Below are positions 1 to 15,746 of a stretch of DNA of 15,746 nt, piece by piece. Every line of letters begins with the position of its first letter. Position 1 is the stretch's first letter. The notes beneath the pieces are model-generated. The model had not been told where the DNA came from. It made no database searches and worked only from the letters and a program-made list of their open reading frames with translations. Where the stretch lies: positions 1 to 15,746 of IMG/VR virus record IMGVR_UViG_2579778952_000009; one strand, written 5' to 3'. The position numbers and the translations under genes were made by a program. This stretch comes from a virus. Taxonomy: Duplodnaviria > Heunggongvirae > Uroviricota > Caudoviricetes.

Positions 1-276
1 GTGGCTTCTGTTTCTATCAGCTGTCCCTCCTGTTCAGCTACTGACGGGGTGGTGCGTAACGGCAAAAGCACCGCCGGACATCAGCGCTATCTCTGCTCTC
101 ACTGCCGTAAAACATGGCAACTGCAGTTCACTTACACCGCTTCTCAACCCGGTACGCACCAGAAAATCATTGATATGGCCATGAATGGCGTTGGATGCCG
201 GGCAACCGCCCGCATTATGGGCGTTGGCCTCAACACGATTTTCCGCCATTTAAAAAACTCAGGCCGCAGTCGGTAA
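1..276 (+). CDS. insA: IS1 InsA (transposition inhibitor / N-terminal part of the InsAB' transposase)
   Basis: 91-aa ORF with GTG start, [43 protein letters not shown]..., the recognisable IS1 InsA zinc-finger protein. Confidence 0.9.
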
Positions 277-698
277 CCTCGCGCATACAGCCGGGCAGTG
301 ACGTCATCGTCTGCGCGGAAATGGACGAACAGTGGGGATACGTCGGGGCTAAATCGCGCCAGCGCTGGCTGTTTTACGCGTATGACAGGCTCCGGAAGAC
401 GGTTGTTGCGCACGTATTCGGTGAACGCACTATGGCGACGCTGGGGCGTCTTATGAGCCTGCTGTCACCCTTTGACGTGGTGATATGGATGACGGATGGC
501 TGGCCGCTGTATGAATCCCGCCTGAAGGGAAAGCTGCACGTAATCAGCAAGCGATATACGCAGCGAATTGAGCGGCATAACCTGAATCTGAGGCAGCACC
601 TGGCACGGCTGGGACGGAAGTCGCTGTCGTTCTCAAAATCGGTGGAGCTGCATGACAAAGTCATCGGGCATTATCTGAACATAAAACACTATCAATAA
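195..698 (+). CDS. insB: IS1 InsB reading frame (expressed as InsAB' transposase via -1 frameshift)
   Basis: 167-aa frame overlapping insA in the -1 frame, with the slippery A6C motif at 249-258. The translation matches IS1 InsB from memory. Confidence 0.85.
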
Positions 699-713
699 GT
701 TGGAGTCATTACC

Positions 714-1903
714 CTCTTTGCGATAATACAGTCTATAATATTGACTCTTTGAATGATCCATATTCATTAATAAAAGCCATACTTATAGCACAAAGGGCAA
801 ATGAAGAAAGCGAGATAAAGTCAAGTCGGGTTAAATTATCATGGAAGAAAAAACGGCAGGATGCACTGGAGTCAGGCACGATTATGACGGCGTCTTGTCC
901 GAGATGGCTCTCCTTAGATGACAAAAGAACGGCTTTTGTTCCAGACCCCGACAGGGTGAAAACTATTGAGCTAATTTTTAAACTCAGGATGGAAAGGCGC
1001 TCATTGAATGCAATAGCCAAGTATTTAAATGATCATGCTGTAAAGAATTTCTCAGGAAAAGAAAGTGCATGGGGACCTTCTGTAATTGAAAAATTATTAG
1101 CGAATAAAGCTCTGATAGGTATATGCGTACCTTCATATCGTGCAAGAGGTAAAGGAATAAGTGAAATCGCTGGCTATTATCCTAGAGTCATATCAGATGA
1201 TTTGTTTTACGCTGTGCAGGAAATTCGGTTGGCACCTTTTGGTATTAGCAATAGTAGCAAAAACCCTATGTTGATAAATCTACTTCGAACAGTTATGAAG
1301 TGCGAGGCTTGTGGTAATACCATGATTGTTCATGCGGTATCTGGAAGTTTGCATGGCTATTATGTTTGTCCGATGAGAAGACTGCATCGATGTGACAGGC
1401 CATCAATAAAGAGAGATTTGGTTGATTATAATATCATTAATGAGTTGCTTTTTAATTGTAGTAAAATCCAACCAGTTGAAAACAAGAAAGATGCTAATGA
1501 AACTTTAGAGTTGAAAATTATTGAGCTCCAGATGAAAATTAATAATTTAATTGCTGCATTATCTGTTGCGCCTGAAGTTACCGCTATAGCAGAAAAAATC
1601 AGAGTATTAGATAAGGAATTACGAAGGGCTTCTGTATCATTAAAAACTTTGAAGAGTAAAGCGGTGAGCTCACTTGGTGATTTTCATGCTATTGACTTAA
1701 CCAGTAAAAATGGGCGAGAGCTATGTCGTACACTTGCCTATAAAACATTCGAAAAAATCATAATCAATACAGATAATAAAACCTGTGATATCTATTTTAT
1801 GAATGGCATTGTTTTTAAACACTATCCTTTAATGAAAACAATATCCGCCCAGCAGGCGATAAGTACTCTCAAATATATGGTTGATGGTGAGGTTTATTTT
1901 TGA
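714..1903 (+). pseudogene. Large serine recombinase, 5'-truncated remnant (recombinase domain and zinc-ribbon retained, catalytic resolvase domain missing)
   Basis: The frame is open from the IS1 junction but has no ATG; the track ORF begins at TTG 749. The translation has a zinc-ribbon CEACGNTMIVH...YYVCPMRRLHRCD and a coiled-coil tail typical of large serine recombinases; the first residues correspond to the end of the catalytic domain. It is AT-rich and occupies the position of ybcK in DLP12. Confidence 0.6.
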
Positions 1904-2014
1904 GTAATAATCACTTTTTCAACCGTGCTATAGTAAGAAAGTTAGGTAAGTACAATAAAATTATCTATCCTGAACGAAGCGTCCTGAGCTATGGTTTTAC
2001 TATAGGGACTGCCA

Positions 2015-2332
2015 ATGGATGCTGGCGTTCTCGTTCTAGCAGTTCAACAATCCCCAATCACAAAACAATTCACTGATAACGAACTTTGCACACTCGCCTG
2101 GTTATGGCGAGCAGGGAATGTGATGTTAATTGCCTACCAGAACGTTACTCATCTTCTTCAGGATGCGGAGCATGGTGAAGCTGGTCACTTCACTTCCATC
2201 GAGCAAGAATATCCCCAGATACTCAACAGAGCGCGAGCAATCCTCGTCCGAGAAACGGCACATGTAAAACTTCAGCCGTGGCAGGATGATAAGTGGAGTC
2301 GAGTATTGCCGTATTTGCGTCAAATCTGTTAG
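2015..2332 (+). CDS. Hypothetical protein, 105 aa
   Basis: ORF with ATG start and a weak AGGGA Shine-Dalgarno upstream. No motif recognised. It lies in the cargo slot between the recombinase remnant and the KilA-N-like gene. Confidence 0.4.
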   Translation: MDAGVLVLAVQQSPITKQFTDNELCTLAWLWRAGNVMLIAYQNVTHLLQDAEHGEAGHFTSIEQEYPQILNRARAILVRETAHVKLQPWQDDKWSRVLPYLRQIC

Positions 2333-2536
2333 GAGTATAGCCGCCAGCCATGAGTGTTGTATTAAAACAAGGATGTCTATATATGGGATAGCGAGAGTAT
2401 GAATATCAGTTATTTTGAGAGTTAACTGATTGTGAAATTAGTTTTTTTCACAAACGAGTGGGGTTACTATGATGAGTGTTCTAATGCATAGGGAACACCT
2501 AATTTTTTCAATGAATTCAAATTGATAGGATCAAAA

Positions 2537-3466
2537 ATGGCACAACAGAGAACTACCTCCCTCAGATCCATACCTTTAGACTTAGATGTTAAGCAAGAGG
2601 CTGTCATTAACGGTATAGAAATGGGGGTACTCGATAACGGAATTCCGTACCTTACTCAGAATGGGTTGGCAAATGTTTGTGGTGTTCAGCGTTTGCGAAT
2701 CAAGGAAATTACCGATGAGTGGGCTCAATCCGTTGAGAACGGTATTTTCAAAAAAGGAAGAATGACTTTTATTGGTACATATCTTCTTAATGAAGGTTTT
2801 ACAGATGAAAAACTTTATATACCAATAATTCGAAATGGTGTTGAGTACCATGCTTATCCAGATGTTGTATGCATGGCTATACTTGAATACTATGCCTTTG
2901 AAGCAAAACAAGCAGAAAGTGAGACTGCAATTAGATCTTACAGAGAGCTTGCTAAAAAAGGCCTCAAGACATTTATATACGAGGCGCTAAAATATCAACC
3001 GGAGGACCCGTGGAGGCATTACCATGACAGAGTATCTTTATTAAAAGATAAGGGAACCATACCTGATGGGTATTTCATTATATTTAATGAAATTGCAGGT
3101 ATGATGGTAGATCTCATCAATGCTGGATTAGCGATTAATCAGCATACCGTACCTGATGGCAGTGTTGGTTCTTGCTGGGCGCGTCACTGGAAAGCAAAGG
3201 GGTTAGCAACAGAATTTGGAGAAAGAGTAGACTGTGAGCATTATTACCCTGAAGATTTTCTTCAGGCAAGTTCCAATCCTCAGATCATTAATGCCTATCC
3301 TGATTCTGCATTGTCAGAGTTTCGTAGATGGTTTAAGCATGAATATTTAACCACAAAGTTCCCACCGTATATTCTTAAAAAATCAAACGTGCTTCCTGGT
3401 GGTACAGAAGATGCTAATCGTCTGATAGAAGCTTTCAAAAAATCAGAGCTAGAAAATAAACCATAA
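2537..3466 (+). CDS. Hypothetical protein, 309 aa, with a KilA-N-like N-terminal segment (candidate antirepressor-like or BstA-like protein)
   Basis: Track ORF 2522-3466; the likely start is ATG 2537, preceded by AGGA at 2527-2530. The N-terminal segment VLDNGIPYLTQNGLANVCG resembles the KilA-N core pattern D-G-x-I-N-A-T-x-x-C-K-A-x-G and the second KilA-N protein in this window (EDGMICLTDMWKASG). The gene is AT-rich relative to the nin genes downstream. Confidence 0.55.
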   Translation: MAQQRTTSLRSIPLDLDVKQEAVINGIEMGVLDNGIPYLTQNGLANVCGVQRLRIKEITDEWAQSVENGIFKKGRMTFIGTYLLNEGFTDEKLYIPIIRNGVEYHAYPDVVCMAILEYYAFEAKQAESETAIRSYRELAKKGLKTFIYEALKYQPEDPWRHYHDRVSLLKDKGTIPDGYFIIFNEIAGMMVDLINAGLAINQHTVPDGSVGSCWARHWKAKGLATEFGERVDCEHYYPEDFLQASSNPQIINAYPDSALSEFRRWFKHEYLTTKFPPYILKKSNVLPGGTEDANRLIEAFKKSELENKP

Positions 3467-3564
3467 TTGTTTTTTGGCTTTTGATTTTACATAATCATTT
3501 TGCCATAATCATGTCATCGGAGCCTGAACAACTCCGGTGACTTCTGCGCTAAACGGGGACGTTT

Positions 3565-3666
3565 ATGCGCACATACAATCCAAACTCTCTTCTCCCTTCA
3601 CAGATGCAGAGATGCACCTGCGATTTTTTGCATCCAGCGTTTGACCTCTGCGGAGGTGAAGCGTGA
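3565..3666 (+). CDS. ylcH: Small protein, 33 aa (YlcH-like)
   Basis: Found by manual reading (below the track's size cutoff): ATG 3565 to TGA 3664-3666, [33 protein letters not shown]. Its stop overlaps the ybcN GTG start (GTGA), and its position matches ylcH in DLP12. Small ORF, so moderate confidence. Confidence 0.4.
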
Positions 3667-4118
3667 ATCTCCCACAAGATGGCATCAAATTACATCGCGG
3701 TAACTTCACCGCTATCGGTCGGCAGATCCAGCCTTATCTGGAGGAGGGCAAATGCTTTCGCATGGTGCTTAAACCGTGGCGTGAGAAACGCAGTCTTTCC
3801 CAGAATGCACTCAGCCACATGTGGTACAGCGAAATCAGTGAATACCTCATCAACAGGGGTAAAACGTTCGCCACTCCAGCTTGGGTAAAAGATGCTCTCA
3901 AACACACATATCTCGGTTATGAAACCAAAGACCTGGTTGATGTCGTAACCGGTGATATCACCACTATCCAGTCGTTACGCCATACCTCCGATCTTGATAC
4001 CGGAGAGATGTATGTCTTCCTGTGTAAGGTTGAAGCCTGGGCGGTGAATATTGGCTGCCACCTGACTATTCCGCAGAGCTGCGAGTTCCAGCTGCTCCGT
4101 GACAAGCAGGAGGCGTAA
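3663..4118 (+). CDS. ybcN: NinB-family recombination protein (YbcN)
   Basis: 151 aa with GTG start. The [18 protein letters not shown] region resembles lambda NinB (LDQNRKLWACLGDVS). The translation matches DLP12 YbcN from memory. Its stop overlaps the ninE start (TAATG). Confidence 0.85.
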
Positions 4119-4288
4119 TGGCTACACCGCTTATTCGTGTCATGAACGGACACATCTACAGAGTATCAAATCGTCGTAAGCGTAAGCCTGAGCCGAAGCC
4201 ATCCGAAATACCAACACTGCTCGGATATACCGCTAGCCTGGTTGATAAAAAATGGTTGCGACTGGCAGCAAGGAGGAATCATGGCTGA
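4118..4288 (+). CDS. ninE: NinE family protein, 56 aa
   Basis: Manually read [59 protein letters not shown]. It lies between ninB and ybcO as in lambdoid nin regions and overlaps the ybcO start by 8 nt. Confidence 0.7.
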   Translation: MATPLIRVMNGHIYRVSNRRKRKPEPKPSEIPTLLGYTASLVDKKWLRLAARRNHG

Positions 4289-4571
4289 TTTGAGAAAAGC
4301 AGCGCGTGGTCGGGAATGCCAGGTAAGAATCCCTGGCGTATGTAATGGCAATTCTGAAACGTCTGTACTGGCACATATCCGGCTGGCTGGATTGTGCGGT
4401 ACCGGTATCAAACCGCCAGACCTGATTGCCACCATTGCATGTTCTGCCTGCCACGACGAAATCGACCGCCGCACACATTTTGTCGATGCTGCATATGCAA
4501 AAGAATGCGCGCTGGAAGGTATGGCGAGAACACAGGTTATCTGGCTGAAAGAGGGGGTTATTAAGGCGTGA
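4281..4571 (+). CDS. ybcO: YbcO (DUF1364, putative nuclease), 96 aa
   Basis: ATG 4281 is preceded by AGGAGG at 4271-4277. [40 protein letters not shown]... is Cys-rich. Its stop overlaps the rusA GTG start. Confidence 0.8.
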
Positions 4572-4930
4572 ATACCTACAGCATCACATTACCCTGGCCT
4601 CCGAGCAATAATCGCTATTACCGCCATAATCGCGGGCGCACGCACATCAGCGCAGAAGGGCAGGCATACCGCGATAACGTCACCCGAATCATTAAAAACG
4701 CAATGCTGGATATCGGCCTGGCTATGCCAGTGAAAATCCGTATTGAGTGCCACATGCCGGATCGCCGTCGCCGTGACCTGGATAATCTGCAAAAAGCCGC
4801 TTTTGACGCACTCACCAAAGCAGGTTTCTGGCTGGATGATGCTCAGGTCGTTGATTACCGCGTTGTGAAGATGCCTGTTACCAAAGGTGGGAGGCTGGAA
4901 CTGACCATCACCGAAATGGGGAATGAATGA
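4568..4930 (+). CDS. rusA: Holliday junction resolvase RusA
   Basis: 120 aa with GTG start. [26 protein letters not shown]...[29 protein letters not shown] matches RusA from memory, including the catalytic Asp-rich region. Confidence 0.9.
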
Positions 4931-5067
4931 TGTTTGAGTTTTATATGGCAGAACTTCTTCGCCACCGCTGGGGGCATCTGCGCTTATATCGTTTCCCCGG
5001 TTCTGTTTTGACCGATTACCGAATACTGAAGAATTACGCCAAAACCCTGACAGGAGCAGGAGTATGA
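4927..5067 (+). CDS. ylcG: Small protein YlcG-like, 46 aa
   Basis: Manually read [49 protein letters not shown], beginning at ATGATG overlapping the rusA stop. Its position between rusA and quuD matches DLP12. Confidence 0.5.
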
Positions 5068-5152
5068 AGTCAGAGATAACAATCAACTAATACTGTTTTG
5101 TTGATTTTTGCTTGTAATTGGCGTTCTGGTCTGATTTTTGTGGAGTAAGTTG

Positions 5153-5536
5153 ATGCGTGATATTCAGATGGTTCTTGAGCGTTGGGGAGCGTGGGCGGCT
5201 AATAATCATGAAGATGTGACCTGGTCGTCCATTGCCGCCGGTTTTAAGGGATTAATTACTTCAAAAGTAAAATCTCGCCCGCAATGTTGTGACGATGACG
5301 CGATGATTATTTGCGGGTGCATGGCCCGTCTGAAAAAGAACAACAGCGATTTGCACGATTTATTAGTAGATTATTATGTAGTCGGTATGACATTCATGTC
5401 ACTGGCAGGTAAGCATTGCTGCTCTGATGGTTATATCGGGAAAAGGTTACAGAAGGCTGAGGGCATAATTGAAGGGATGTTAATGGCATTAGATATCCGG
5501 TTAGAGATGGATATCGTTGTTAATAACTCTAATTAA
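5153..5536 (+). CDS. quuD: Late-gene antitermination protein Q (QuuD-like)
   Basis: ATG 5153 with GGAG 6 nt upstream (the track ORF starts at TTG 5138). [24 protein letters not shown]... has the Cys cluster [16 protein letters not shown] and matches DLP12 QuuD from memory. Confidence 0.85.
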
Positions 5537-5552
5537 TATGCCAATTGTTTAC

Positions 5553-5587
5553 TAAAAATTATTAAAAATGGGGCGTTGAGACGCCCC
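5553..5587 (-). terminator. Candidate Rho-independent terminator of nmpC, minus strand
   Basis: GC hairpin GGGGCG-ttgaga-CGCCCC at 5570-5587. On the minus strand it is followed by AUUUUUAAUAAUUUUU. It lies about 140 nt downstream of the nmpC stop. Confidence 0.45.
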
Positions 5588-5675
5588 CAAAAATAAAGGG
5601 TAATATATAACTGAAGGTTTATATAGTTAGAAGCAAGGTTGTGCTTCTAAAGGAAGTGGCTTGAGGGAGCCACTT

Positions 5676-5717
5676 ATATGTTGGGGAGGCAACGCCTCCC
5701 GCAACATATCTTTTTCG
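5676..5717 (+). terminator. Candidate intrinsic terminator, plus strand (possible tR'-like element downstream of quuD)
   Basis: Extended inverted repeat atatgttggggaggc-aac-gcctcccgcaacatat followed by CTTTTTC. It lies about 140-180 nt downstream of the quuD stop. Confidence 0.4.
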
Positions 5718-5725
5718 TAATCAGA

Positions 5726-6808
5726 TTAGAACTGGTAAACCAGACCTACAGCAACGATGTCATCAGTATCAATACCAGCTGTTTTGGTAAACTTACTATC
5801 GTCAATTAAGTTGATTTTGTAATCAACAAAAGTGGACATGTTTTTATTAAAGTAGTAAGTAGCACCGACATCGACATACTTGACTAAGTCTCGGTCACCA
5901 TGAACACCAAGGTCTTTACCTTTTGACTGAAGGTAAGCAACAGATGGGCGCAGACCGAAGTCAAACTGATATTGTGCTACTGCTTCAAAGTTTTGTGCTT
6001 TGTTTGCAATATGGTTATTACCAAAAACGGTCATATTCTGAGTTTCAGAATATGTGGTAGCCAGATAGATATTGTTCGCATCATATTTCAGGCCTGCAGC
6101 CCATACTTCCGCATTTTTGCCGGAGGCATTGAATTTGCTCTTACCATAGGCGACCTGACCGTCAGTGCGATCTGATTTAGCATAGGTTGCACCCACGCCG
6201 AATCCTTCATACTCATAAGTAGTGGAGAAACCGAAACCATCACCATTGGCTTCAGTTACGTCAGTGCGGTCATTTTTACCCTGATACTGAGCAGCAAAGT
6301 TCAGGCCATCGACCAGACCAAAGAAGTCGTTGTTACGATAAGTTGCAACACCAGTAGTGCGACCAGTCATGAACACATCTGTTTGGGTCCAGGTATCACC
6401 ACCGAATTCTGGCAGGACGTCAGTCCACGCACCGATGTCGTATGCTACACCGTAGTTACGGCCGTAATCGATTGAGCCGTAATCACCAAATTTCAGGCCT
6501 GCAAATGCAAGACGGGTTTTGTCTTTGGAAGAACCTTGAGATTCAGCGCGGTTGCCTTTGAATTCATATTCCCACTGACCGAAACCAGTCAGTTGATCGT
6601 TGATTTGGGTTTCACCTTTGAAGCCAAGACGGGCATAAGTAGTATCACCATCATCTGCATCATTAGAGGAGAAGTAGTGCTTAGCATTAACTTTCCCGTA
6701 CAGATCCAGCTTGTTACTGTCTTTATTATAAATTTCAGCTGCCTGAGCAGACATCGCCATCAGTACTGATGCAGCTACAGCAGAAATTGCCACTGTTAAT
6801 TTTTTCAT
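5726..6808 (-). CDS. nmpC: Outer membrane porin NmpC/Lc (OmpC family), apparently intact
   Basis: The track ORF is 5726-6868; the start is set at the internal [23 protein letters not shown] signal peptide (ATG at 6808 with an AAGGG SD). The protein has an AEIYNKD mature N-terminus and the C-terminal beta-barrel signature ...VAVGLVYQF. No insertion sequence interrupts it. Confidence 0.9.
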
Positions 6809-7235
6809 CGTGAGCCCTTTTTTTGAACTATTATTAAAAAATGATGTCACTGCGTGATAAATATTCATCTAATCAATGTGATTATTTCAAGATGTAAGTT
6901 TTGGTTTCTCGTTTAATTTGTGAAGTAGATCTCTATTTTTATCTGAACTTTTTTCTATCGAATCCTATTCATGGCTCTTGGCTGAATAAAAATAAATCTA
7001 TTAGCCAATTTATATTAATGGCTGTTATTTATAAGTGCTCTATAATTTGAAGGTTCAATTTAAATTGGCTAAAAATAACGCTGGAAATTATTTGTTGGTT
7101 ATTTGTTGAGATTTGCTTATGTATTTGTAGTGGTGTTTTCAATACTCGGTAGCATTCTCGCAAATATCATTTAGTGGTTTACGTACGTAAAAAATTGGTT
7201 ATGCTGTTAAGAGTGGTTACTTCGTCACACAGCTT

Positions 7236-7268
7236 AAACCCGCCGTCGAGCGGGTTTTTCCATTTTTT
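7236..7268 (+). terminator. Intrinsic terminator upstream of the lysis cassette
   Basis: 8-bp stem AAACCCGC / GCGGGTTT with loop cgtcga, followed by TTCCATTTTTT. Confidence 0.55.
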
Positions 7269-7380
7269 GAGTCTCGATATTAGCTGATAACCCAATACCT
7301 GAGTTATTCACTGACTCCGAGTCTGTTACGTTTCGTAGTATTCCCTCAATTTACACCCGCTTTGTCTGCGAGGTGGGGTT

Positions 7381-7596
7381 ATGAAATCCATGGATAAGTT
7401 AACAACGGGTGTCGCCTATGGCACCTCAGCAGGTAGTGCCGGGTACTGGTTTTTACAGCTGCTCGATAAAGTCACGCCCTCACAGTGGGCAGCAATAGGT
7501 GTGCTGGGTAGCCTGGTATTTGGCCTGCTGACGTACCTGACAAACCTTTATTTCAAGATTAAAGAAGATAAGCGCAAGGCTGCGAGAGGTGAATAA
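7381..7596 (+). CDS. essD: Class I holin (lambda S-like) with dual-start motif
   Basis: 71 aa, [10 protein letters not shown]..., with a Met1-Lys2-x-Met4 dual start typical of holin/antiholin pairs, predicted transmembrane segments and a charged C-terminus. GAGGTGGGG SD upstream. Matches DLP12 EssD from memory. Confidence 0.85.
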
Positions 7597-8093
7597 TGCC
7601 TCCATCATTACGAAAAGCTGTTGCTGCTGCTATTGGTGGCGGGGCTATTGCTATAGCATCTGTGTTAATCACTGGCCCAAGTGGTAACGATGGTCTGGAA
7701 GGTGTGAGACATAATCCTTACAAAGACATAGTTGGTGTATGGACTGTATGTTACGGGCATACAGGAAAAGACATCATTCCCGGTAAAACGTATACCGAAG
7801 CAGAGTGCAAAGCCCTCCTGAATAAAGACCTTGCCACTGTCGCCAGACAAATTAACCGGTACATCAAAGTCGATATACCGGAAACAACGCGCGGCGCTCT
7901 TTACTCGTTCGTCTACAACGTGGGTGCTGGCAATTTCAGAACATCGACGCTTCTTCGCAAAATAAACCAGGGTGATATTAAAGGCGCATGTGATCAGCTA
8001 CGGCGCTGGACATACGCTGGCGGTAATCAATGGAAAGGGCTGATGACTCGCCGTGAGATTGAGCGTGAAGTCTGTTTGTGGGGGCAGCAATGA
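7596..8093 (+). CDS. rrrD: Phage lysozyme / endolysin (GH24 family)
   Basis: 165 aa. The start overlaps the essD stop (TAATG). Matches DLP12 RrrD from memory. Confidence 0.9.
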
Positions 8094-8527
8094 GCAGGTT
8101 AACCGCGATTATCTCCGCTCTGGTTATCTGCATCATCGTCTGTCTGTCATGGGCTGTTAATCATTACCGTGATAACGCCATTACCTATAAAGAACAGCGC
8201 GATAAAGCCACGTACATCATCGCTGACATGCAGAAGCGTCAACGTGACGTAGCAGAACTCGATGCCAGATATACAAAGGAGCTTGCTGATGCTAACGCGA
8301 CTATCGAAAGTCTCCGTGCTGATGTTTCTGCTGGGCGTAAGCGCCTGCAAGTCGCCGCCACCTGTGCAAAGTCAACGACCGGAGCCAGCGGCATGGGCGA
8401 TGGAGAAAGCCCAGGACTTACAGCAGATGCTGAACTCAATTATTACCGTCTCCGAAGTGGAATCGACAAGATAACCGCGCAGGTTAACTACCTGCAGGAA
8501 TACATCAGGACGCAATGCCTGAATTAA
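8090..8527 (+). CDS. rzpD: Spanin, inner membrane subunit (Rz-like)
   Basis: ATG 8090 overlaps the endolysin stop. It has an N-terminal transmembrane segment [23 protein letters not shown] followed by a coiled-coil region. The track ORF starts earlier, at 8078. Confidence 0.8.
8289..8474 (+). CDS. rzoD: Spanin, outer membrane lipoprotein subunit (Rz1-like), embedded in rzpD in the +1 frame
   Basis: Embedded [39 protein letters not shown]... with a signal peptide, a lipobox-like VSAC and a Pro-rich segment. The start is chosen at the ATG preceding the signal sequence; the track ORF begins at 8262. Confidence 0.6.
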
Positions 8528-8559
8528 TTTTTTTGCAAATCACAAAGTCCATTTAATGA

Positions 8560-8582
8560 GCCTCGCGATGCGGGGCTTTTTG
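8560..8582 (+). terminator. Intrinsic terminator after the lysis cassette (first of a tandem pair)
   Basis: gccucgc-gau-gcggggc stem (one G-U pair) followed by UUUUU. Confidence 0.5.
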
Positions 8583-8588
8583 CAATAA

Positions 8589-8613
8589 ATGCGTACCGCA
8601 ACGCATGTTTTTT
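8589..8613 (+). terminator. Intrinsic terminator after the lysis cassette (second of a tandem pair)
   Basis: atgcgt-accgca-acgcat hairpin followed by GTTTTTT. Confidence 0.5.
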
Positions 8614-8728
8614 ACACCGAACCTGCCCCTTTGGAATGGGCCTTTGAGGATACCAGTTAGTGCTGGCGAGCCTCGGTGGGCTGGTTTCCTGTGCGGCAAA
8701 GGTTCATTTCAAAGAGTAGGTACACGCT

Positions 8729-9226
8729 ATGAAATCATTAACCCTCTTCAATCAACCAATTCGTATCGGTGAAGATGGCATGATCTGCCTCACTGATATG
8801 TGGAAAGCCAGTGGTAAAAGTGAATCTGAATCGCCTTACCACTACCTGCGAAACAAGCAGACCAAAGAGTTCTTAGCCGAGCTGGAGAAAAACCACGAAT
8901 CTGTGGTTTTTACTGAGCGCGGTGTACACGGTGGAACATATGGCGGGAAGTTTGTTGCTTACGATTATGCGGCTTGGTTAAACCCCGGGTTCAAGTACGC
9001 GGCCTATAAAGTCCTCGATGACTACTTCACCGGAGAACTTCAGCATCGCAACAGCTTAAGTGCGCAGCTCAACATGAAATGTCATGAGTTTGACCAGAAG
9101 AAAGACATGGCGAGCTTCTGCGGACAAGGGCTGGCAGCATGGCGCTATACGAAGCCAGTGTTGGTCGCTGAGATTAACTCCCTGGCTAACCAGCTGCAGA
9201 TTACGATCCCCGGGCTTCCGGGATGA
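8729..9226 (+). CDS. KilA-N domain protein, 165 aa (antirepressor-like)
   Basis: IRIGEDGMICLTDMWKASGKSESESPYHYLRNKQTKEFLAELEK fits the KilA-N pattern (DG-x-I-x-x-T-x-x-x-K-A-x-GK ... W/YLR-x-x-x-T-x-EFL). Its stop overlaps the next ORF's start (ATGA). Confidence 0.7.
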   Translation: MKSLTLFNQPIRIGEDGMICLTDMWKASGKSESESPYHYLRNKQTKEFLAELEKNHESVVFTERGVHGGTYGGKFVAYDYAAWLNPGFKYAAYKVLDDYFTGELQHRNSLSAQLNMKCHEFDQKKDMASFCGQGLAAWRYTKPVLVAEINSLANQLQITIPGLPG

Positions 9227-9534
9227 GTGATCGTGTTATTGAATGCGCCTCCAGAGCGGGGCGCGACTTCTCAGAGTTCATGAAAGGCGAGAAGGGCATG
9301 ATGGAAGCATTGGCCTCGGTGGATGAGTTTGGCGAGCAGCTGCGCCTCAACGGCTGTGTCAATCATCACTTTGTTAGCTACATGATGCGGAACTCGATCA
9401 TGCAGGCATTCATGGACATGGCAAAAGCCGAGAGGAAAGAAGAGCGCCGGCGGAAGCAAAAGCGAAGTAGCCATTACAAAGCCTATCTACGGGTGGGCTT
9501 GATAATGGCTTATACCCTACACGGGATAACTTAA
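9223..9534 (+). CDS. Hypothetical protein, 103 aa, translationally coupled to the KilA-N gene
   Basis: ORF overlapping the upstream stop by 4 nt, with a basic C-terminal stretch KAERKEERRRKQKRSSHYKAY. No motif recognised. Confidence 0.45.
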   Translation: MSDRVIECASRAGRDFSEFMKGEKGMMEALASVDEFGEQLRLNGCVNHHFVSYMMRNSIMQAFMDMAKAERKEERRRKQKRSSHYKAYLRVGLIMAYTLHGIT

Positions 9535-9756
9535 CTGATATCCCTTTTAAAGGATAAAGGTATTCAAGCCTGACACATCATGCGCTGTATCGTCGCCGTA
9601 TTCCCGTATTAACAGAGACCGTAGCCCGACGGGGAACTCCTTCTGCGCGAGTGTGCGGGAATAATCAAAAACGATGCACACCGGGGTTACCGGGTACACA
9701 TATTTCATCATGCCAGCGAGTCCGGTTCTGGCACGGAAGAAACCGGACGTTATGAT

Positions 9757-10167
9757 TTAGTGCGGAAATATTTGTGTAGTGTTCTGAATGTTCTCAGTAA
9801 AGAGTAATGAATTATCAAAGGTATAGTAATACCTTTTGTTTTCGTGGATATTTGTAATCCATCTGAAAACCCCTGCTGTAGCAAGATTTTTCCTGTATTC
9901 GTAAAATGATAACTCTCCTGATTTGAATCCTTTTAAGGTGGCTTCTATAAGGCATTTATTTTTTGAAAATCTTACATTTACAACCTTACCCTGTCCTTTT
10001 ATTAAAACCGTATTATCGTTTTCAAGAACAAGATGAATATTCTCTGTAGCTAAATAGTAAATGTAATGTGAGACATTGTGACGTTTTAGTTCAGAATAAA
10101 ACCAGTGATAGTTTAAATTATTTCGCACTTTATCGAATATTTGTTTAAAAATGGCAACCTGAGCCAT
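9757..10167 (-). CDS. ybcV: YbcV (DUF1398 family prophage protein)
   Basis: The start is set at [14 protein letters not shown]... (ATG 10167 with GAAGG 7 nt upstream). The translation resembles DLP12 YbcV from memory. The track ORF extends to 10182. Confidence 0.8.
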
Positions 10168-10223
10168 TGTAGTACCTTCCATGTGATATGAGGGGCGTAG
10201 TCTGCACGATTATCTAAATTGCT

Positions 10224-10457
10224 TCAATCTGGTCTGATCTGTTTTCTGAGCAATTCAGTAATGTCACTCTTTTCTTTGTTTGCTTCAGGAGAAACTCTTT
10301 TTTCTGAGCACAGTCTCCGGCGGCAGGCTTCAATGACCCAGGCTGAGAAATTCCCAGACCCTTTTTGCTCAAGAGCGATGTTAATTTGTTCAATCATTTG
10401 GTTAGGAAAGCGGATGTTGCGGGTTGTTGTTCTGCGGGTTTTGTTCTTCGTTGACAT
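10224..10457 (-). CDS. ylcI: YlcI/YnfO-family small protein (DUF3950-like), 77 aa
   Basis: MSTKNKTRRTTTRNIRFPNQMIEQINIALEQKGSGNFSAWVIEACRRRL... resembles the YnfO/YlcI family from memory. It is chosen over the overlapping plus-strand ORF 10219-10485 because it is co-oriented with ybcV and carries the recognisable motif. Confidence 0.5.
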   Translation of the reverse strand: MSTKNKTRRTTTRNIRFPNQMIEQINIALEQKGSGNFSAWVIEACRRRLCSEKRVSPEANKEKSDITELLRKQIRPD

Positions 10458-10559
10458 GAGGTTGCCCCGTATTCAGTGTCGCTGATTTGTATTGTCTGAA
10501 GTTGTTTTTACGTTAAGTTGATGCAGATCAATTAATACGATACCTGCGTCATAATTGAT

Positions 10560-10845
10560 TATTTGACGTGGTTTGATGGCGTAGATGCACGTTGTGACAT
10601 GTAGATGATAATCATTATCATTTTGCGGGTCCTTTCCGGCGATCCGACAGGTTACGGGGCGGCGACCTCGCGGGTTTTTGCTATTTATGAAAATTTTCCG
10701 GTTTAAGGTGTTTCCGTTCTTCTTCGTCGTAACTTAATGTTTTTATTTAAAATACCCCCTGAAAAGAAAGGAAACGACAGGTGCTGAAAACGAGCTTTTG
10801 GGCCTTTGTCGTTTCCTTTCTCTGTTTTTGGCCGTGGAATGAACA
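10560..10845. other. Lambda-type cohesive end site (cosQ-cosN-cosB), with the 12-nt cohesive-end sequence GGGCGGCGACCT at 10657-10668
   Basis: The sequence ...cgacaggttacg|gggcggcgacctcgcgggtttttgctatttatgaaaattttccggtttaagg... matches the lambda right-end/left-end junction and cosB from memory, including the dyad aaaggaaacgacagg...cctttgtcgtttccttt before the nu1 start. Confidence 0.8.
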
Positions 10846-11027
10846 ATGGAAGTCAACAAAAAGCAGCTGGCTGACATTTTCGGTGCGAGTATCCGTACCA
10901 TTCAGAACTGGCAGGAACAGGGAATGCCCGTTCTGCGAGGCGGTGGCAAGGGTAATGAGGTGCTTTATGACTCTGCCGCCGTCATAAAATGGTATGCCGA
11001 AAGGGATGCTGAAATTGAGAACGAAAA
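10846..11027 (+). pseudogene. nohD: Terminase small subunit Nu1 homolog, 5' fragment (first ~60 codons only)
   Basis: MEVNKKQLADIFGASIRTIQNWQEQGMPVLRGGGKGNEVLYDSAAVIKWYAERDAEIENE matches lambda Nu1 from memory. Similarity stops after ...gagaacgaaaa (11027), where the sequence continues as side-tail-fibre repeats in another frame. Confidence 0.8.
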
Positions 11028-13022
11028 TCCGAAACTGCAGCGGCATCATCAAAGAACGCGGCGAAAACCTCAGAAACGAATGCAGCTAATAGTGCACAGG
11101 CGGCAGCGACCTCAAAGACTGCATCGGCAAACTCCGCGACAGCAGCCAAAAAATCAGAAACCAACGCGAAAAATAGCGAGACAGCCGCAAAGACGAGCGA
11201 AACCAACGCAAAGTCCAGCCAGACGGCAGCGAAAACCAGCGAAACGAATGCCAAAGCCAGTGAAACTGCGGCAAAAAACAGCCAGGTTGCAGCAGCCCAA
11301 AGCGAGAGCGCGGCAGCCGGTTCTGCGACTTCAGCAGCTGGATCAGCAACTGCTGCGGCTAACAGCCAGAAAGCTGCGAAGACGAGTGAAACTAACGCAA
11401 AGTCCAGCCAGACGGCAGCGAAGACCAGCGAAACGAATGCCAAAACCAGCGAAACTGCGGCGAAAAACAGTCAGGATGCAGCAGCCCAAAGCGAGAGTGC
11501 TGCAGCTGGTTCTGCAAGCGCGGCGGCTGCTTCTGCCATTGCATCAGCCAACAGTCAAAAAGCTGCAAAAACCAGTGAAACCAACGCAAAGGCGAGCGAG
11601 ACTGCGGCTGCTAACTCGGCGAAAGCATCAGCTGCAAGCCAGACGGCTGCAAAAGCAAGTGAAGACGCAGCCAGGGAGTACGCAAGCCAGGCAGCAGAGC
11701 CGTATAAATATGTCTTACAGCCGCTTCCTGATGTGTGGATACCGTTTAACGATTCACTGGATATGATTACGGGCTTTTCGCCATCATATAAAAAGATTGT
11801 TATTGGTGATGATGAAATAACAATGCCTGGCGACAAGATTGTAAAGTTTAAACGCGCATCAAAAGCAACTTACATTAATAAATCTGGTGTGCTGACAGAG
11901 GCTGCAATCGATGAACCTCGCTTTGAAAAGTATGGATTGCTGATTGAAGGGCAGCGTACAAACCTGTTAATAAACAGCACAAATCCATCAAAGTGGAACA
12001 AGTCATCAAATATGATTTTAAATACATCAGGTGTAGATGATTTTGGTTTCCAGTACGCAAAATTCACATTAAAACCAGAAATGGTGGGGCAAACCTCAGC
12101 CATTTCTATTGTCACAGTATCTGGAAGCAAAGGATATGATGTTACCGGCGATGAAAAGTATGTAACTATCTCATGCAGGGTACAAAGTGGGACTCCAAAT
12201 TTAAGATGTCGATTACGATTTGAAGAATATGATGGATCTACCTACAAATTCCTGGGTGATGCTTACTTAAATATGACAGATTTATCGATTGATAAAACTG
12301 GCGGCGCTGCAAGTCGTATTACTGCAAGGGCTGTTAAAAATGAAGCAAGCAAATGGATTTTCTTTGAGGCAACAATTAAGGCACTTGATACAGAAAATAT
12401 GATCGGTGCGATGGTGCAATATGCACCACCAAAAGGGGGAAGCACTGGTGCAGATGATTATATTTATGTTGCAACTCCTCAGGTCGAAGGCGGTTCGTGC
12501 GCTTCTTCGTTTATTATTACTGAGGCAACGCCAGTCACAAGAGCCAGTGATATGGTGAATATACCAACAAATAACAATATCGGTACACCACCTTTAACAT
12601 TTCTAGCTGAAGTTCATACAAACTGGAACGAAACGCCAAATGCAGCACCACGAATTTTTGATACCAGTGGTGGGAGCACAACTCCGGGTCAATATATAAG
12701 TGTTGCTATTAGTTCAACATTATTTCCTGGTGTTACGATGCACAATAAAAACGGTAGTACAGTAGCCGCCGTATCGCCAGTATTATTTGAATAAAAATCT
12801 GTTCTTGGATTTGTTTTAAATGAATCTGGTAATGTGCATTTCGTTAGCAATGCCCAGCATGGGACTCCTAAAACCACGGATCATGTCGGTGTTAAATCTG
12901 GTTATTTCTTCAGGATTGGGGGACAGACTAATAGCGGTCTACGTCATCTTTTCGGTCACATTCGTAATTTTCGTATATGGCATAAAGAATTAACCGATGC
13001 ACAAATGGGAGAGGTAATATAA
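11028..13022 (+). pseudogene. Side tail fibre (Stf-like) gene, 3' portion, fused to the nohD fragment by deletion and carrying an in-frame TAA at 12792-12794
   Basis: Frame 0 is open from 11019 and encodes Stf-type repeats (AAKTSETNAKSSQTAAKTSETNAKASETAAKNSQ...), then a C-terminal domain. A single TAA at 12792 interrupts the same frame, which continues to 13022 with a LamG-like ending (GHIRNFRIWHKELTDAQMGEV). Confidence 0.7.
11187..11564. repeat. Imperfect tandem direct repeat, two copies of 189 bp (63 codons), inside the tail-fibre fragment
   Basis: Copy 1 starts gcaaagacgagcgaaaccaacgcaaagtccagccagacggcagcgaaaaccagcgaaacgaatgcc... at 11187. Copy 2 starts gcgaagacgagtgaaactaacgcaaagtccagccagacggcagcgaagaccagcgaaacgaatgcc... 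at 11376. Each copy contains shorter degenerate sub-repeats encoding AKTSETNAK. Confidence 0.75.
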
Positions 13023-13303
13023 TGCGAGACTTAATTATCAAATTCACAGACAAGGCCGACTTTTCGGCCTTTATGGATAGCATTGGTTATGACGATGACG
13101 AGGTGATGCAGAACAATGTTCTCATTGATGTGATAGGTAACGTGTACAAAGAAACCGGGGAAATTACTGAAGATGGCGAGCCGGTATGTGTTAAGGAAGA
13201 CGGATATTTTGTAAACGTGCGCATCATTAATGATGTGAAAACACCGTCAATATTCGATGAATACGCGGTTGTTGTTGAGCATCAACTTCGTGGCTGGATG
13301 TGA
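13022..13303 (+). CDS. Hypothetical protein, 93 aa, acidic
   Basis: ORF whose ATG overlaps the upstream stop (TAATG). No motif recognised. It lies in the tail-fibre module. Confidence 0.45.
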   Translation: MRDLIIKFTDKADFSAFMDSIGYDDDEVMQNNVLIDVIGNVYKETGEITEDGEPVCVKEDGYFVNVRIINDVKTPSIFDEYAVVVEHQLRGWM

Positions 13304-13312
13304 GGGAGACAA

Positions 13313-14017
13313 ATGGCTACATCGACAGTAATTCCTGGAGATATCACCACGCTAAAGGGAGATGTCAGTAAAACTAAGGAAGATATTTCCTCAATTAACG
13401 GAAAAGTATCAACGCTTCAGATTGATATGACCAGTGCAAAGCAGGATATCAGCACCAGATACACAAAAACTGAAGTTGATAATAAGCTGAAAAACAAAGT
13501 GGAAGCGAACGATCTGGAAAGCGGTCGTTATGGCGGTGATTTTTACCCGCTGACTGGCCGCGAAGCGTTTTATTTATGGGGGTTGGGCACGACTACTGCG
13601 GCGGCAAACCTTTATCTTAATCCTGACCCTGCAATTTCGTCTGTACTGCGGTCCACATCGTCTATCCGCTATAAACATTCAGTAGAGACGATAGATTCAG
13701 AGCACGCCGATGTCATTTTCAGGATGCGCCCTGTGTGGTACAGGTCGCAATGCGAAAATGACAGGCGTGACTGGGGGTTCTACGGATTGATTGCCGAGGA
13801 AGTAGGAGAAATTGCCCCTCAGTTTGTACACTGGCGACCAGCTAACGAAGATGATGCTCCTGAAGCTATTTCCAGCAATGGCCTTGTTGCCGAAGGTGTA
13901 ATGTACGAACGTCTGGTTGTTCCACTGATTCACCATATCCAGAAGCTGACTGAAAGAGTTGATGAACTTGAGTCAGAATTAAAGTTGTTATTAACTTCCC
14001 GAAGCGATATCGGATAA
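13313..14017 (+). CDS. Tail-fibre-like protein with C-terminal intramolecular chaperone (peptidase S74-like) domain
   Basis: GAGGGAG SD upstream. The N-terminal region is heptad/coiled-coil-like. The C-terminal SSIRYKHSVETID...RPVWYRSQ...WGFYGLIAEEVGEIAPQFVHW...LVVPLIHHIQKLTERVDELESELKLL fits the S74 chaperone pattern (SDxRLKxNI...Y.W......GfIAQEVeevlPeaV). Confidence 0.65.
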   Translation: MATSTVIPGDITTLKGDVSKTKEDISSINGKVSTLQIDMTSAKQDISTRYTKTEVDNKLKNKVEANDLESGRYGGDFYPLTGREAFYLWGLGTTTAAANLYLNPDPAISSVLRSTSSIRYKHSVETIDSEHADVIFRMRPVWYRSQCENDRRDWGFYGLIAEEVGEIAPQFVHWRPANEDDAPEAISSNGLVAEGVMYERLVVPLIHHIQKLTERVDELESELKLLLTSRSDIG

Positions 14018-14027
14018 AGGAGGAATA

Positions 14028-14321
14028 ATGGATATAACACCTTTCCTTCATGCACTTTGTGCTGTGGCTGCGCAGGTACTGGTTGGTCTTTTTACCGGAA
14101 ACTGGGCTTACGGGGCGATAGCCGGTTGTACGTTCTTCATTGCGCGTGAACACACCCAGGCAGAATATCGCTGGATCGAAATGTTCGGGCATGGCAAGCG
14201 AATGAATATGCCGTGGTGGGGCGGTTTTGATACACGTGCATGGGATGTGGCAAGCCTGATGGATTTTGCTGTGCCGGTGGTGGCGTGTCTGCTGGTCTGG
14301 CTGTTGGTTAATCGTGGGTGA
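14028..14321 (+). CDS. Small hydrophobic (membrane) protein, 97 aa
   Basis: AGGAGG SD 7 nt upstream. Two or three hydrophobic segments (FLHALCAVAAQVLVGLF, YGAIAGCTFFIA, FAVPVVACLLVWLLV). Tightly coupled to the upstream gene. Confidence 0.5.
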   Translation: MDITPFLHALCAVAAQVLVGLFTGNWAYGAIAGCTFFIAREHTQAEYRWIEMFGHGKRMNMPWWGGFDTRAWDVASLMDFAVPVVACLLVWLLVNRG

Positions 14322-14996
14322 AAAAAGGTGAGCTGTATATGCAACGGAGGAAGAAAACTCGTTGCTGGAAGCCTGGAAAAAGTATCGGGTGCTGCTAAAC
14401 CGTGTGGACACTTCCGTAGCACCAGATATCGAGTGGCTTATTCAACCATAATAAACAGTATGTATATCATAGGTTATTAATTGTGAGTTTTTTCGGTGTG
14501 TTATTTGTTTGTTTGATGTTATGCTTTTGCGCCCCAAAAGGTTGTTTAGATGTATTTTATCAATTGATTTTCAATATCGTTTAATAAAGAAAAATTAAGC
14601 AAGCTGGATGTTGGTTTTTTGTTAATTGAATGGTTCTAATAATGTTTTTTTACTGTTGTTGAATGTGACTTGATAAGAAATGCAAGTAAAAATGATACTC
14701 TTTTTATTTTAAATTCAAACGGTTGACATATATATAGCAAGAGGTTTCAGGTGCGTTGTAGTGAGTTTATGTTAATAAAAAGCATAGTAAGCGTTGAAAA
14801 ATGTAACTTTGAAATACGTTAGAATAAAAAACAATATACATATAATAATTTAATCTTAAATGAAACTTATTAAAATTTGCAAACTATAATTTTGTGTATA
14901 AAAATATAAATGCACATCATCCTGATTATGATTGTGTATTTAATTGGCTGTTATTTGACTACTATCAACTTGTTTTAATTTTATGATAGGTGCAAG

Positions 14997-15746
14997 ATGG
15001 ATTATGTTTGCTCCGTAGTTTTCATCTGTCAATCATTTGATTTAATTATAAACAGGAGAGTTATCTCGTTCAAAAAAAATTCATTGTTTATTGTAAGCGA
15101 CAAAATTAGAAGAGAGTTACCAGTATGCCCCTCTAAACTAAGAATTGTTGATATAGATAAGAAAACATGTTTATCCTTTTTTATCGACGTGAATAATGAG
15201 TTGCCTGGCAAATTTACTCTTGATAAGAATGGCTATATTGCTGAAGAGGAACCTCCATTATCGCTTGTTTTTTCTCTGTTTGAAGGGATTAAAATAGCAG
15301 ACTCACACTCCCTTTGGTTAAAAGAAAGACTATGTATATCCTTACTTGCCATGTTCAAAAAACACGAAAGTGTAAATTCATTTATACTAACAAATATAAA
15401 TACATTTACATGTAAAATTACTGGAATAATCAGTTTTAATATTGAGCGGCAATGGCATTTAAAAGATATTGCGGAATTGATTTATACGAGTGAAAGTTTA
15501 ATAAAAAAAAGATTAAGGGATGAAGGAACGTCATTTACTGAAATATTGAGAGATACTAGGATGAGGTATGCAAAAAAACTCATAACTTCAAACTCTTATT
15601 CTATCAATGTCGTAGCCCAGAAATGTGGCTATAACAGTACTTCATATTTCATATGTGCATTTAAAGATTATTATGGTGTCACGCCATCTCATTATTTTGA
15701 GAAAATAATCGGCGTCACAGATGGAATAAACAAAACAATTGACTGA
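14997..15746 (+). CDS. appY: AraC-family transcriptional regulator AppY
   Basis: 249 aa, [41 protein letters not shown]..., with a C-terminal AraC-type HTH ([27 protein letters not shown]). Matches DLP12 AppY from memory. Very AT-rich gene, ending at the window edge with TGA. Confidence 0.9.

Follow-up and report, generated by a model that had tools for sequence, protein, structure and literature searches.

The accessory end of a lambdoid side-tail-fibre cassette in a DLP12-type cryptic prophage of Escherichia coli

The locus and the decayed prophage

The DNA considered here, referred to below as the window, is the complete stretch of 15,746 nucleotides (nt) of the IMG/VR record IMGVR_UViG_2579778952_000009 (Caudoviricetes), positions 1 to 15,746. 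It is a DLP12-type cryptic prophage adjoining appY, in which a crippled side-tail-fibre gene (stf) stands ahead of three intact open reading frames (ORFs), named here orf93, orf234 and orf97 after their lengths in amino acids (aa). These three genes are the normal, full-length end of a side-tail-fibre cassette, left in a dead E. coli prophage. The features at this end of the window are the following.

11022–13022, + strand: stf pseudogene (so annotated by PGAP), with Ala/Ser/Thr-rich shaft repeats and a distal module
13022–13303, + strand: orf93, 93 aa
13313–14017, + strand: orf234, 234 aa
14028–14321, + strand: orf97, 97 aa
14341–14451, + strand: 3′ remnant of a tail fibre assembly gene, tfa/tfaX-like (PGAP: pseudogene), from a translation made by eye

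The genes follow one another closely. The stf stop codon is overlapped by the ATG of orf93 (TAATG at 13020–13024), and GGGAGAGG precedes the orf93 start. GAGGGAG (13302–13308) lies 4 nt ahead of the orf234 ATG and overlaps the orf93 stop, while AGGAGG (14018–14023) comes immediately after the orf234 stop, 4 nt ahead of the orf97 ATG. Only 9 nt separate the orf93 stop from the orf234 start, and 10 nt the orf234 stop from the orf97 start. The first-pass annotation of this DNA had read open frames of 93, 234 and 97 aa at these coordinates, overlapping or nearly abutting and equipped with strong ribosome-binding sites; the frames are confirmed, as are the signals at each of the three starts. Its description of a coupled three-gene operon stands as to the tight late-operon coupling, but not as to the number of genes, as the coupled unit starts with stf and has four. 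The gene set is also unlike that of K-12, as had been suspected; K-12 has nohD-aaaD′-tfaD-ybcY′-tfaX-appY at the corresponding position. All three products match PHROG families (orf93 phrog_1361, orf234 phrog_3299 and orf97 phrog_1443, with E-values from 2e-43 to 8e-140), and because all three have many homologues they are real genes rather than chance ORFs. An Rfam scan of the whole window gave no match, and neither did PADLOC run on the three proteins.

The same genes are found in phages that infect. In the infectious lambda-like phages IdasGreatGrand and PhiR49_1, J, lom and an intact stf are followed by genes of 93/94, 234 and 95–97 aa, the products being 78–98% (orf93), 95% (orf234) and 93–95% (orf97) identical to those of the window. 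The middle gene had been thought too short for a complete fibre and was taken for a trimmed or repurposed fibre module. Neither view survives this comparison: 234 aa is the native length of the gene behind an intact stf in both phages, and gene lengths and synteny, the two points compared, are the same in them as in the window. A 234-aa ORF also stands ahead of orf97 in 35 fetched loci, mostly E. coli prophage contigs from IMG/VR, and homologues of 225–245 aa (~58–60% identity) hold the same position in virulent T1-like phages.

The fibre gene ahead of the three ORFs had been called frameshifted. It is instead a single frame, 11022–13022, open but for one in-frame stop at 12792–12794, where IdasGreatGrand Stf has Gln, and lacking its N-terminal domain. 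The remnant is 92% identical to residues 129–731 of IdasGreatGrand Stf and matches phrog_1419 (positions 365–793), NF048003 GTA_spike_fiber and Pfam Laminin_G_3; the distal module thus consists of a GTA-spike-fibre domain and a ConA/Laminin_G_3-like lectin end. Nothing remains of the tail-attachment domain that intact relatives have at the N-terminus (PF08400), and what is left of stf is fused to the 5′ part of nohD. Two further ORFs overlap the remnant. One of 62 aa (12834–13022) is the last part of Stf, downstream of the in-frame stop. The other, of 306 aa (10846–11766), is a chimera that runs from the N-terminus of NohD/Nu1 (Pfam Phage_Nu1, residues 1–80) into out-of-frame stf repeats; its stf part is a long Arg/Lys/Pro/Gln-rich artefact of out-of-frame reading, and the ORF marks the deletion junction at which all head and tail genes and the 5′ end of stf were lost.

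In strain E300010 a whole nohD adjoins an stf with the N-terminal domain still in place, and the same three genes and then appY come next; the window therefore carries a further deletion of a prophage that was already without head and tail. Over most of its length the arrangement of the window is present in 11 of 5,426 complete E. coli genomes at 99.9–100% identity, which points to recent clonal descent and not to long retention. The tfaX-like remnant marks the old end of the DLP12 fibre region, ahead of appY, and its position between orf97 and appY suggests a recombination in which the older DLP12 tfaD/ybcY region gave way to the stf-orf93-orf234-orf97 block. Elsewhere in the DLP12 remnant an ompC/nmpC-like porin gene is intact (5726–6868, − strand, a 380-aa ORF annotated as ‘porin OmpC’); its K-12 counterpart, nmpC, is a split pseudogene.

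The fibre cassette and its probable small distal fibre

Homologues of orf93 are present in 179 phage records (35–52% identity), always directly behind a lateral or side tail fibre gene. The fibre stop is overlapped by the small gene in phage 21, SLUR29, KarlJaspers (T1-like), IrisVonRoten (T5-like), JeffSchatz (rV5-like) and JenP2 (Nonagvirus). In IrisVonRoten, SLUR29, KarlJaspers and JenP2 the order is the same throughout: a fibre, a stop-overlapping 92-aa gene, a gap of 9–12 nt and a protein of the S74 type, named after the Peptidase_S74 intramolecular chaperone domain. When the fibres that precede orf93 or its homologue in IdasGreatGrand, phage 21, SLUR29, KarlJaspers, IrisVonRoten and JeffSchatz were aligned (JenP2 was left out), the last ~330 residues were alignable among all six, with the common ending RIGGQT..GERHLFGHIRNFRIWHKELTD. 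This distal module is the part that matches GTA_spike_fiber and Laminin_G_3. Judged from these sequences, orf93 is the constant partner of one kind of fibre end, that with a GTA-spike-fibre and lectin distal module.

The other members of the cassette are less constant. Cassettes of the phage 21 type combine orf93 with this Stf distal module and are without an S74 gene, and virulent phages of the T1, T5 and Nonagvirus types have the same fibre cassette without orf97. No segment of the Stf distal module was found to correlate with the presence of the S74 gene when loci L005 and L007 were compared. What is common to lambda-, T1-, T5- and Nonagvirus-type coliphages is a modular lateral-fibre cassette made up of a proximal fibre, an obligatory partner of 92–93 aa and an exchangeable S74 distal fibre. 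The cassette belongs to the already known multi-protein lateral or side tail fibres of siphoviruses, which consist of one, two or more proteins (BASEL papers).

The small partner had been described as acidic, in agreement with a computed isoelectric point of 4.1 (20 Asp and Glu against 8 Lys and Arg). An AlphaFold2 model of orf93, with a mean predicted local distance difference test (pLDDT) score of 77, shows a small alpha/beta fold of the order strand-helix-helix-hairpin and a disordered, conserved C-terminal LRxW tail. The model was built on a shallow alignment, because a search with a profile of diverse relatives gave almost only close E. coli copies. A structural search with it gave no significant fold match, and there was no match to the protein in Pfam or NCBIfam. 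When orf93 was compared with tail fibre assembly chaperones of the Tfa, gp38 and Mu U types, no similarity in sequence or fold to a known fibre chaperone family was seen. From its position alone, orf93 is probably an assembly factor or adaptor for the distal fibre module.

The regions of orf234 can be set out as follows.

Residues 1–15: docking peptide, MATSTVIPGDITTLK
Residues ~10–65: coiled coil
Residues 66–115: tip
Residues 116–234: S74 intramolecular chaperone
13658–13675, + strand: predicted autoproteolysis motif S116-S-I-R-Y-K121, with the Ser codon TCG at 13658–13660 and the Lys codon AAA at 13673–13675

Pfam Peptidase_S74 (PF13884) matches residues 116–172 with 27.3 bits, above the curated cut-off of 22, and position 1 of the model falls on S116. 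The intramolecular-chaperone domain that had been recognized by eye is therefore genuine, and the catalytic Ser/Lys dyad, left at that stage to be looked for, is present as Ser116 and Lys121. All the features that sequence can supply for placing a protein among the S74 fibre proteins are thus found in orf234, namely a profile score above the threshold and a Ser and a Lys five residues apart at the start of the domain. The best match in the PDB is the L-shaped fibre of phage T5 (8hqz, E=5.7e-8), in which TSGIEYK is aligned with TSSIRYK of orf234. All 234-aa alleles have the same STSSIRYK, and the T1-like homologues, a 346-aa allele and Gp24 of IrisVonRoten keep the two residues at the S-x4-K distance. 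The N-terminal coiled coil, also noted in the first pass, resembles those of P22 gp26 and the LPP zipper. Between it and the predicted cleavage site lie ~50 aa that are conserved across phage groups. Tip and chaperone are well conserved between lambda-like and T1-like phages, and the coiled coil varies in length. Predicted cleavage before Ser116 would leave a mature fibre of 115 aa, consisting of the peptide, the coiled coil and the ~50-aa tip.

The N-terminus is conserved as a docking peptide, as seen in a comparison of MATSTVIPGDITTLK with MVTKTVIPTDITKLK (Gp24), MATSTVIPDDIKTLK (346-aa allele) and MATVTVIPNDITRLK (SLUR29); phrog_4563 and phrog_19752 match residues 1–33 of orf234 only. All alleles start with M[AV]T.TVIP.DI..LK, then diverge, and converge again in the S74 domain. 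The gene behind the 92-aa gene encodes 245 aa in SLUR29, 225 in KarlJaspers, 348 in JenP2 and 574 in IrisVonRoten. Peptidase_S74 stands at the end of the SLUR29, KarlJaspers and IrisVonRoten proteins, the three that were scanned, and the 348-aa gene of JenP2 is annotated as a “putative endosialidase-like protein”. In KarlJaspers (bas06_0035, L007 5270–5947) the annotation probably places the start 4 codons too early (MGLI-MATVTNIP...); the conserved beginning, MAT.T.IP, opens with the fifth codon of the annotated gene.

The fetched loci with orf97 are almost entirely E. coli prophage contigs of IMG/VR. In the slot that separates orf93 from orf97, 35 of these loci have the 234-aa gene and 20 a gene of 346 aa; in 16, the phage 21 type, the slot is empty. 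The gap ahead of orf97 is fixed by the type of slot, at 10 nt behind the 234-aa gene, 42 nt behind the 346-aa gene and 12 nt when the slot is empty. These alleles are spread among loci L013–L092 (examples are L022 and L057), and the 346-aa S74 fibre has a middle domain of ~200 aa, of the phrog_4563 type. With an N-terminal peptide that is conserved, a middle that varies and a chaperone at the C-terminus that removes itself, these proteins are built like exchangeable distal fibres that fit onto an unchanging partner. By this anatomy orf234, the shortest member of the S74 distal fibre series, is a complete mini distal fibre and not a truncation.

The closest parallel is IrisVonRoten (Bas32, T5-like). 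In a preprint that says nothing on what Gp23 does (10.1101/2024.09.12.612763), the fibre of this phage is modelled as a proximal part, Gp22, to which Gp24, a distal fibre with a chaperone, is attached. The gene order and spacing of Gp22, Gp23 (92 aa) and Gp24 are those of the cassette. Gp22 is 47% identical to the cassette Stf, the gene for which is a pseudogene in the window, Gp23 is 42% identical to orf93, and Gp24 has its N-terminal peptide and S74 domain in common with orf234. In contrast to orf234, with only a coiled coil and a ~50-aa tip, Gp24 has 574 aa and two predicted receptor-binding domains, and IrisVonRoten has no orf97. In the T5-like phage DT57C, branched lateral fibres of LtfA and LtfB have been shown genetically; here too the second fibre protein is attached to the first by its N-terminus, the S74 domains are autocleavable, and the O-antigen is the first receptor (PMC4728585; PMC10713586). 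DT57C differs in that LtfA has an S74 domain of its own, LtfB is thought to dock at mid-shaft, and no small 92-aa gene is reported.

The K1F endosialidase and T5 pb1 (8hqz) share with orf234 the PF13884 domain, C-terminal and with a coiled-coil tail behind it, and the Ser-x4-Lys arrangement at its start, but the part to be folded is several hundred aa or more in these proteins as against 115 aa in orf234. With lambda Stf/Tfa the cassette has in common its place behind J and lom, where the late operon ends, and the N-terminal PF08400 domain of Stf in intact relatives. It differs from lambda, and from K-12 tfaD/tfaX, in having no Tfa-type chaperone; orf93, the optional S74 fibre and orf97 replace tfa, and the distal module of Stf is of the GTA-spike-fibre and lectin type.

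The membrane protein encoded by orf97

The product of orf97 is hydrophobic at both ends. A structural model (pLDDT 91) has three helices, at residues 4–23, 26–52 and 74–96, and the small protein with two or three transmembrane segments of the first-pass annotation is accordingly predicted to be a three-helix membrane protein. By the positive-inside rule the loop at residues 40–73 would be cytoplasmic. The family comprises 469 relatives in a 90%-clustered collection and, at 50% identity, 460 clusters. Nearly all members stand alone as proteins of 90–120 aa, and none has a Pfam domain or a name. Four positions, H8, R40, E41 and W72, show little or no variation throughout the family, and four more, Q44, A45, E46 and P83, are nearly invariant. 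The resulting core pattern, H...RE..QAE...W, looks like an active or binding site. In close relatives FIAREHTQAEYRWI...MPWWGGF is almost invariant. No NCBIfam match was obtained for orf97, and Pfam searches with 71 family members at E-values up to 10 returned noise, with weak matches to the PhoR transmembrane hairpin in 12 of the 71. Both orf93 and orf97 belong to no described family. No paper mentioning either was found in the literature searched, and the KanT1 and BASEL papers are silent on the small genes.

Genes of the orf97 family lie directly behind tailspike and fibre genes, often overlapping them, as in these fetched loci.

L009, 3989–4288
L095, 6001–6300
L097, 6001–6297
L098, 6001–6294
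L010, 4001–4306

In the P22-like JEP4 the homologue follows the tailspike gene with a 4-nt overlap, and the integrase gene is next. It is behind a tail fibre in P2/HP1-like prophages of Aeromonas and Leclercia, behind the tfa gene in Halomonas phage phiHAP-1, behind an S74-bearing fibre downstream of GpJ in a siphovirus-type prophage, and behind a GpJ-like gene and a 72-aa ORF in Comamonas. Several of the fibres that precede family members in the P22-like, P2/HP1-like and GpJ-type prophages or phiHAP-1 carry an S74 domain.

Further members were sampled by a degenerate DNA pattern scan of IMG/VR. Among 113 distinct family sequences from all fetched loci, the upstream ORF has an S74 domain in 33 cases, is orf93 in 9 and is another ORF of at least 300 aa in 33. 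The gap to the upstream gene is at most 30 nt in 85 of 104, and in 40 the genes overlap. Twenty upstream neighbours without an S74 domain or orf93, mostly ORFs of at least 300 aa, were sampled against PHROG; 15 were tail fibres or tailspikes, one was a portal protein and four gave no match. In temperate phages the cassette has orf97 as its conserved closing gene, and across sipho-, myo- and podo-types the gene adjoins receptor-binding protein genes. In Escherichia phage HC6, apparently virulent, an unannotated 51-aa fragment of the family (L012, 3965–4120) follows an 859-aa S74-bearing fibre gene. It matches family residues 41–93, and the same match is present in Salmonella phage ST1UNAM and in phages PBM-2 and PBM-3.

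A holin identity was rejected on context, as orf97 has no endolysin neighbour and its C-terminus, ...LLVNRG, has no charged tail. The lysis genes essD/rrrD are ~6 kb upstream, and in other phages the genes around orf97 are those of fibres or spikes and unknowns.

Superinfection exclusion genes are found near receptor-binding genes, as with Cor of T1 and phi80 and Llp of T5, and the tail operon of HK97 encodes another such protein, gp15, in the inner membrane. Like these, orf97 would be a small envelope protein, and proteins of the Cor/Llp type are likewise encoded beside receptor-binding genes. It has no sequence or profile similarity to any of them, however, and no lipobox. Cor and Llp are receptor-specific, whereas orf97 is conserved beside varying receptor-binding proteins. 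With so much conservation beside such variable neighbours, orf97 cannot be tied to any single receptor. The best guess, and a tentative one, is a generic protection at the level of the envelope, either superinfection exclusion or modification of an envelope pathway. Position beside receptor-binding protein genes fits the exclusion idea; the absence of a promoter, discussed below, does not. Somewhat more speculatively, the widespread phrog_1443 family may be a class of small inner-membrane proteins not described before, whose members travel with receptor-binding modules and act as generic, receptor-independent exclusion factors or as modifiers of an envelope or polysaccharide pathway.

A proposed mechanism and its alternatives

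The three ORFs are best read together as the 3′ accessory genes of a lambdoid side-tail-fibre cassette that was left behind in a cryptic prophage of the DLP12 type, and this reading, with the fibre mechanism that follows, is considered probable. In a working phage stf, orf93, orf234 and orf97 would be expressed as a single late transcript. Stf would form the proximal fibre, with the lectin-like module at its end. The start/stop overlap would allow orf93 to be made in step with Stf, for which it may serve as a dedicated assembly factor or adaptor of the distal module. The product of orf234 would trimerise through its coiled coil; the S74 chaperone would fold the tip and then cut itself off at Ser116 with the help of Lys121. 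The mature 115-aa trimer would dock on the Stf fibre through its N-terminal peptide, and the outcome would be a two-part or branched lateral fibre like that of IrisVonRoten Gp22/Gp24. A slot with a 234-aa gene, a 346-aa gene or no gene is the pattern of an exchangeable fibre gene. The last product, orf97, may insert in the inner membrane and protect the envelope of the producing or lysogenic cell from further phage, or otherwise alter that envelope, independently of which receptor-binding protein precedes it; this last step is proposed with low confidence.

Several observations weigh against this scheme. The orf234 tip is conserved between lambda-like and T1-like phages rather than hypervariable, as many receptor-binding tips are, and the phage 21-type cassettes without an S74 gene indicate that the mini-fibre is dispensable. 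As for protection by orf97, comparison with described defence and exclusion families gave no match in PADLOC, Pfam or NCBIfam, and a fold search returned generic helix bundles only. No sigma-70-like promoter of its own was found on the + strand between 12700 and 14320, and with its start/stop coupling to late genes orf97 is in this respect unlike a gene expressed from a repressed prophage.

A very improbable alternative makes orf234 a receptor-binding module, truncated from a fibre that lost most of its length or else repurposed, which the remnant has retained because it now serves the host in some new way. The protein is short for a fibre, matching only the last ~240 of the 1385 columns of phrog_3299, and it sits in a decayed prophage. 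Yet its length and spacing are identical in infectious phages and in the 35 fetched loci, virulent T1-like phages keep a version of 225–245 aa, and no longer ORF runs in the same frame upstream of 13313, orf93 ending at 13303. It has its own start codon, ribosome-binding site and N-terminal peptide, and the peptide is common to independent fibres of 346 and 574 aa. The few nearly identical E. coli genomes with the DLP12 arrangement also speak for recent clonal descent and not for long retention. A different proposal is that orf93 and orf234 are not virion parts and act in trans to help the Stf distal module fold, Stf rather than the N-terminal part of orf234 itself being the target of the S74 domain. 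In GenBank the KarlJaspers counterpart of orf234 bears the label ‘putative lateral tail fiber chaperone’, the cassette Stf has neither an S74 domain of its own nor a Tfa-type partner, and the conserved tip would suit such a role. This is nonetheless unlikely: S74 chaperones are known to act in cis on the adjacent N-terminal trimeric segment, as in the K1F endosialidase and T5 pb1, and an Stf with the same distal module does without an S74 gene in cassettes of the phage 21 type. The slot also holds proteins of 346, 348 and 574 aa with sizeable domains between docking peptide and chaperone, and the IrisVonRoten distal fibre has been modelled as attached to the proximal one. A trans-acting chaperone therefore seems less likely than a distal fibre as the product of orf234.

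For orf97, in place of exclusion or immunity, the alternative is a membrane factor that acts late and is connected with the biology of the receptor-binding protein. Candidate roles are the handling of the S74 fragment, maturation of fibres or spikes at the membrane, prevention of progeny sticking at release, and a holin-like function. The start/stop coupling to fibre or spike genes in many lineages, the lack of a promoter-like site of its own and the frequent position behind S74-bearing fibres are in its favour, and one family member has a weak match to Phage_holin_8 (E=0.04). On the other hand, virulent phages of the T1, T5 and Nonagvirus types have stf-orf93-S74 without orf97, and HC6 has only the 51-aa fragment; fibre assembly thus does not need orf97. 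The gene is never beside an endolysin, and its C-terminus is not charged like holin tails. A late-acting role of this kind is considered only slightly less likely than protection of the envelope.

In the window the cassette cannot build a virion, and its three intact genes are leftovers, with a possible part as a recombination reservoir; defective prophages with intact fibre cassettes are known recombination donors to incoming phages. For the window itself the findings carry little weight: it holds a stranded piece of an ordinary lambdoid fibre cassette, its prophage is cryptic, and the gene behind the “odd short fibre” is normal. The definition of the cassette is useful for annotation, where all three genes are now “hypothetical protein”, and for host-range engineering. 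It also flags two conserved, unstudied families, those of orf93 and orf97. The orf97 family is the sole lead worth following, and a modest one; linked as it is to receptor-binding proteins, it would give a screen for phage exclusion or for envelope effects a well-defined target at low cost.

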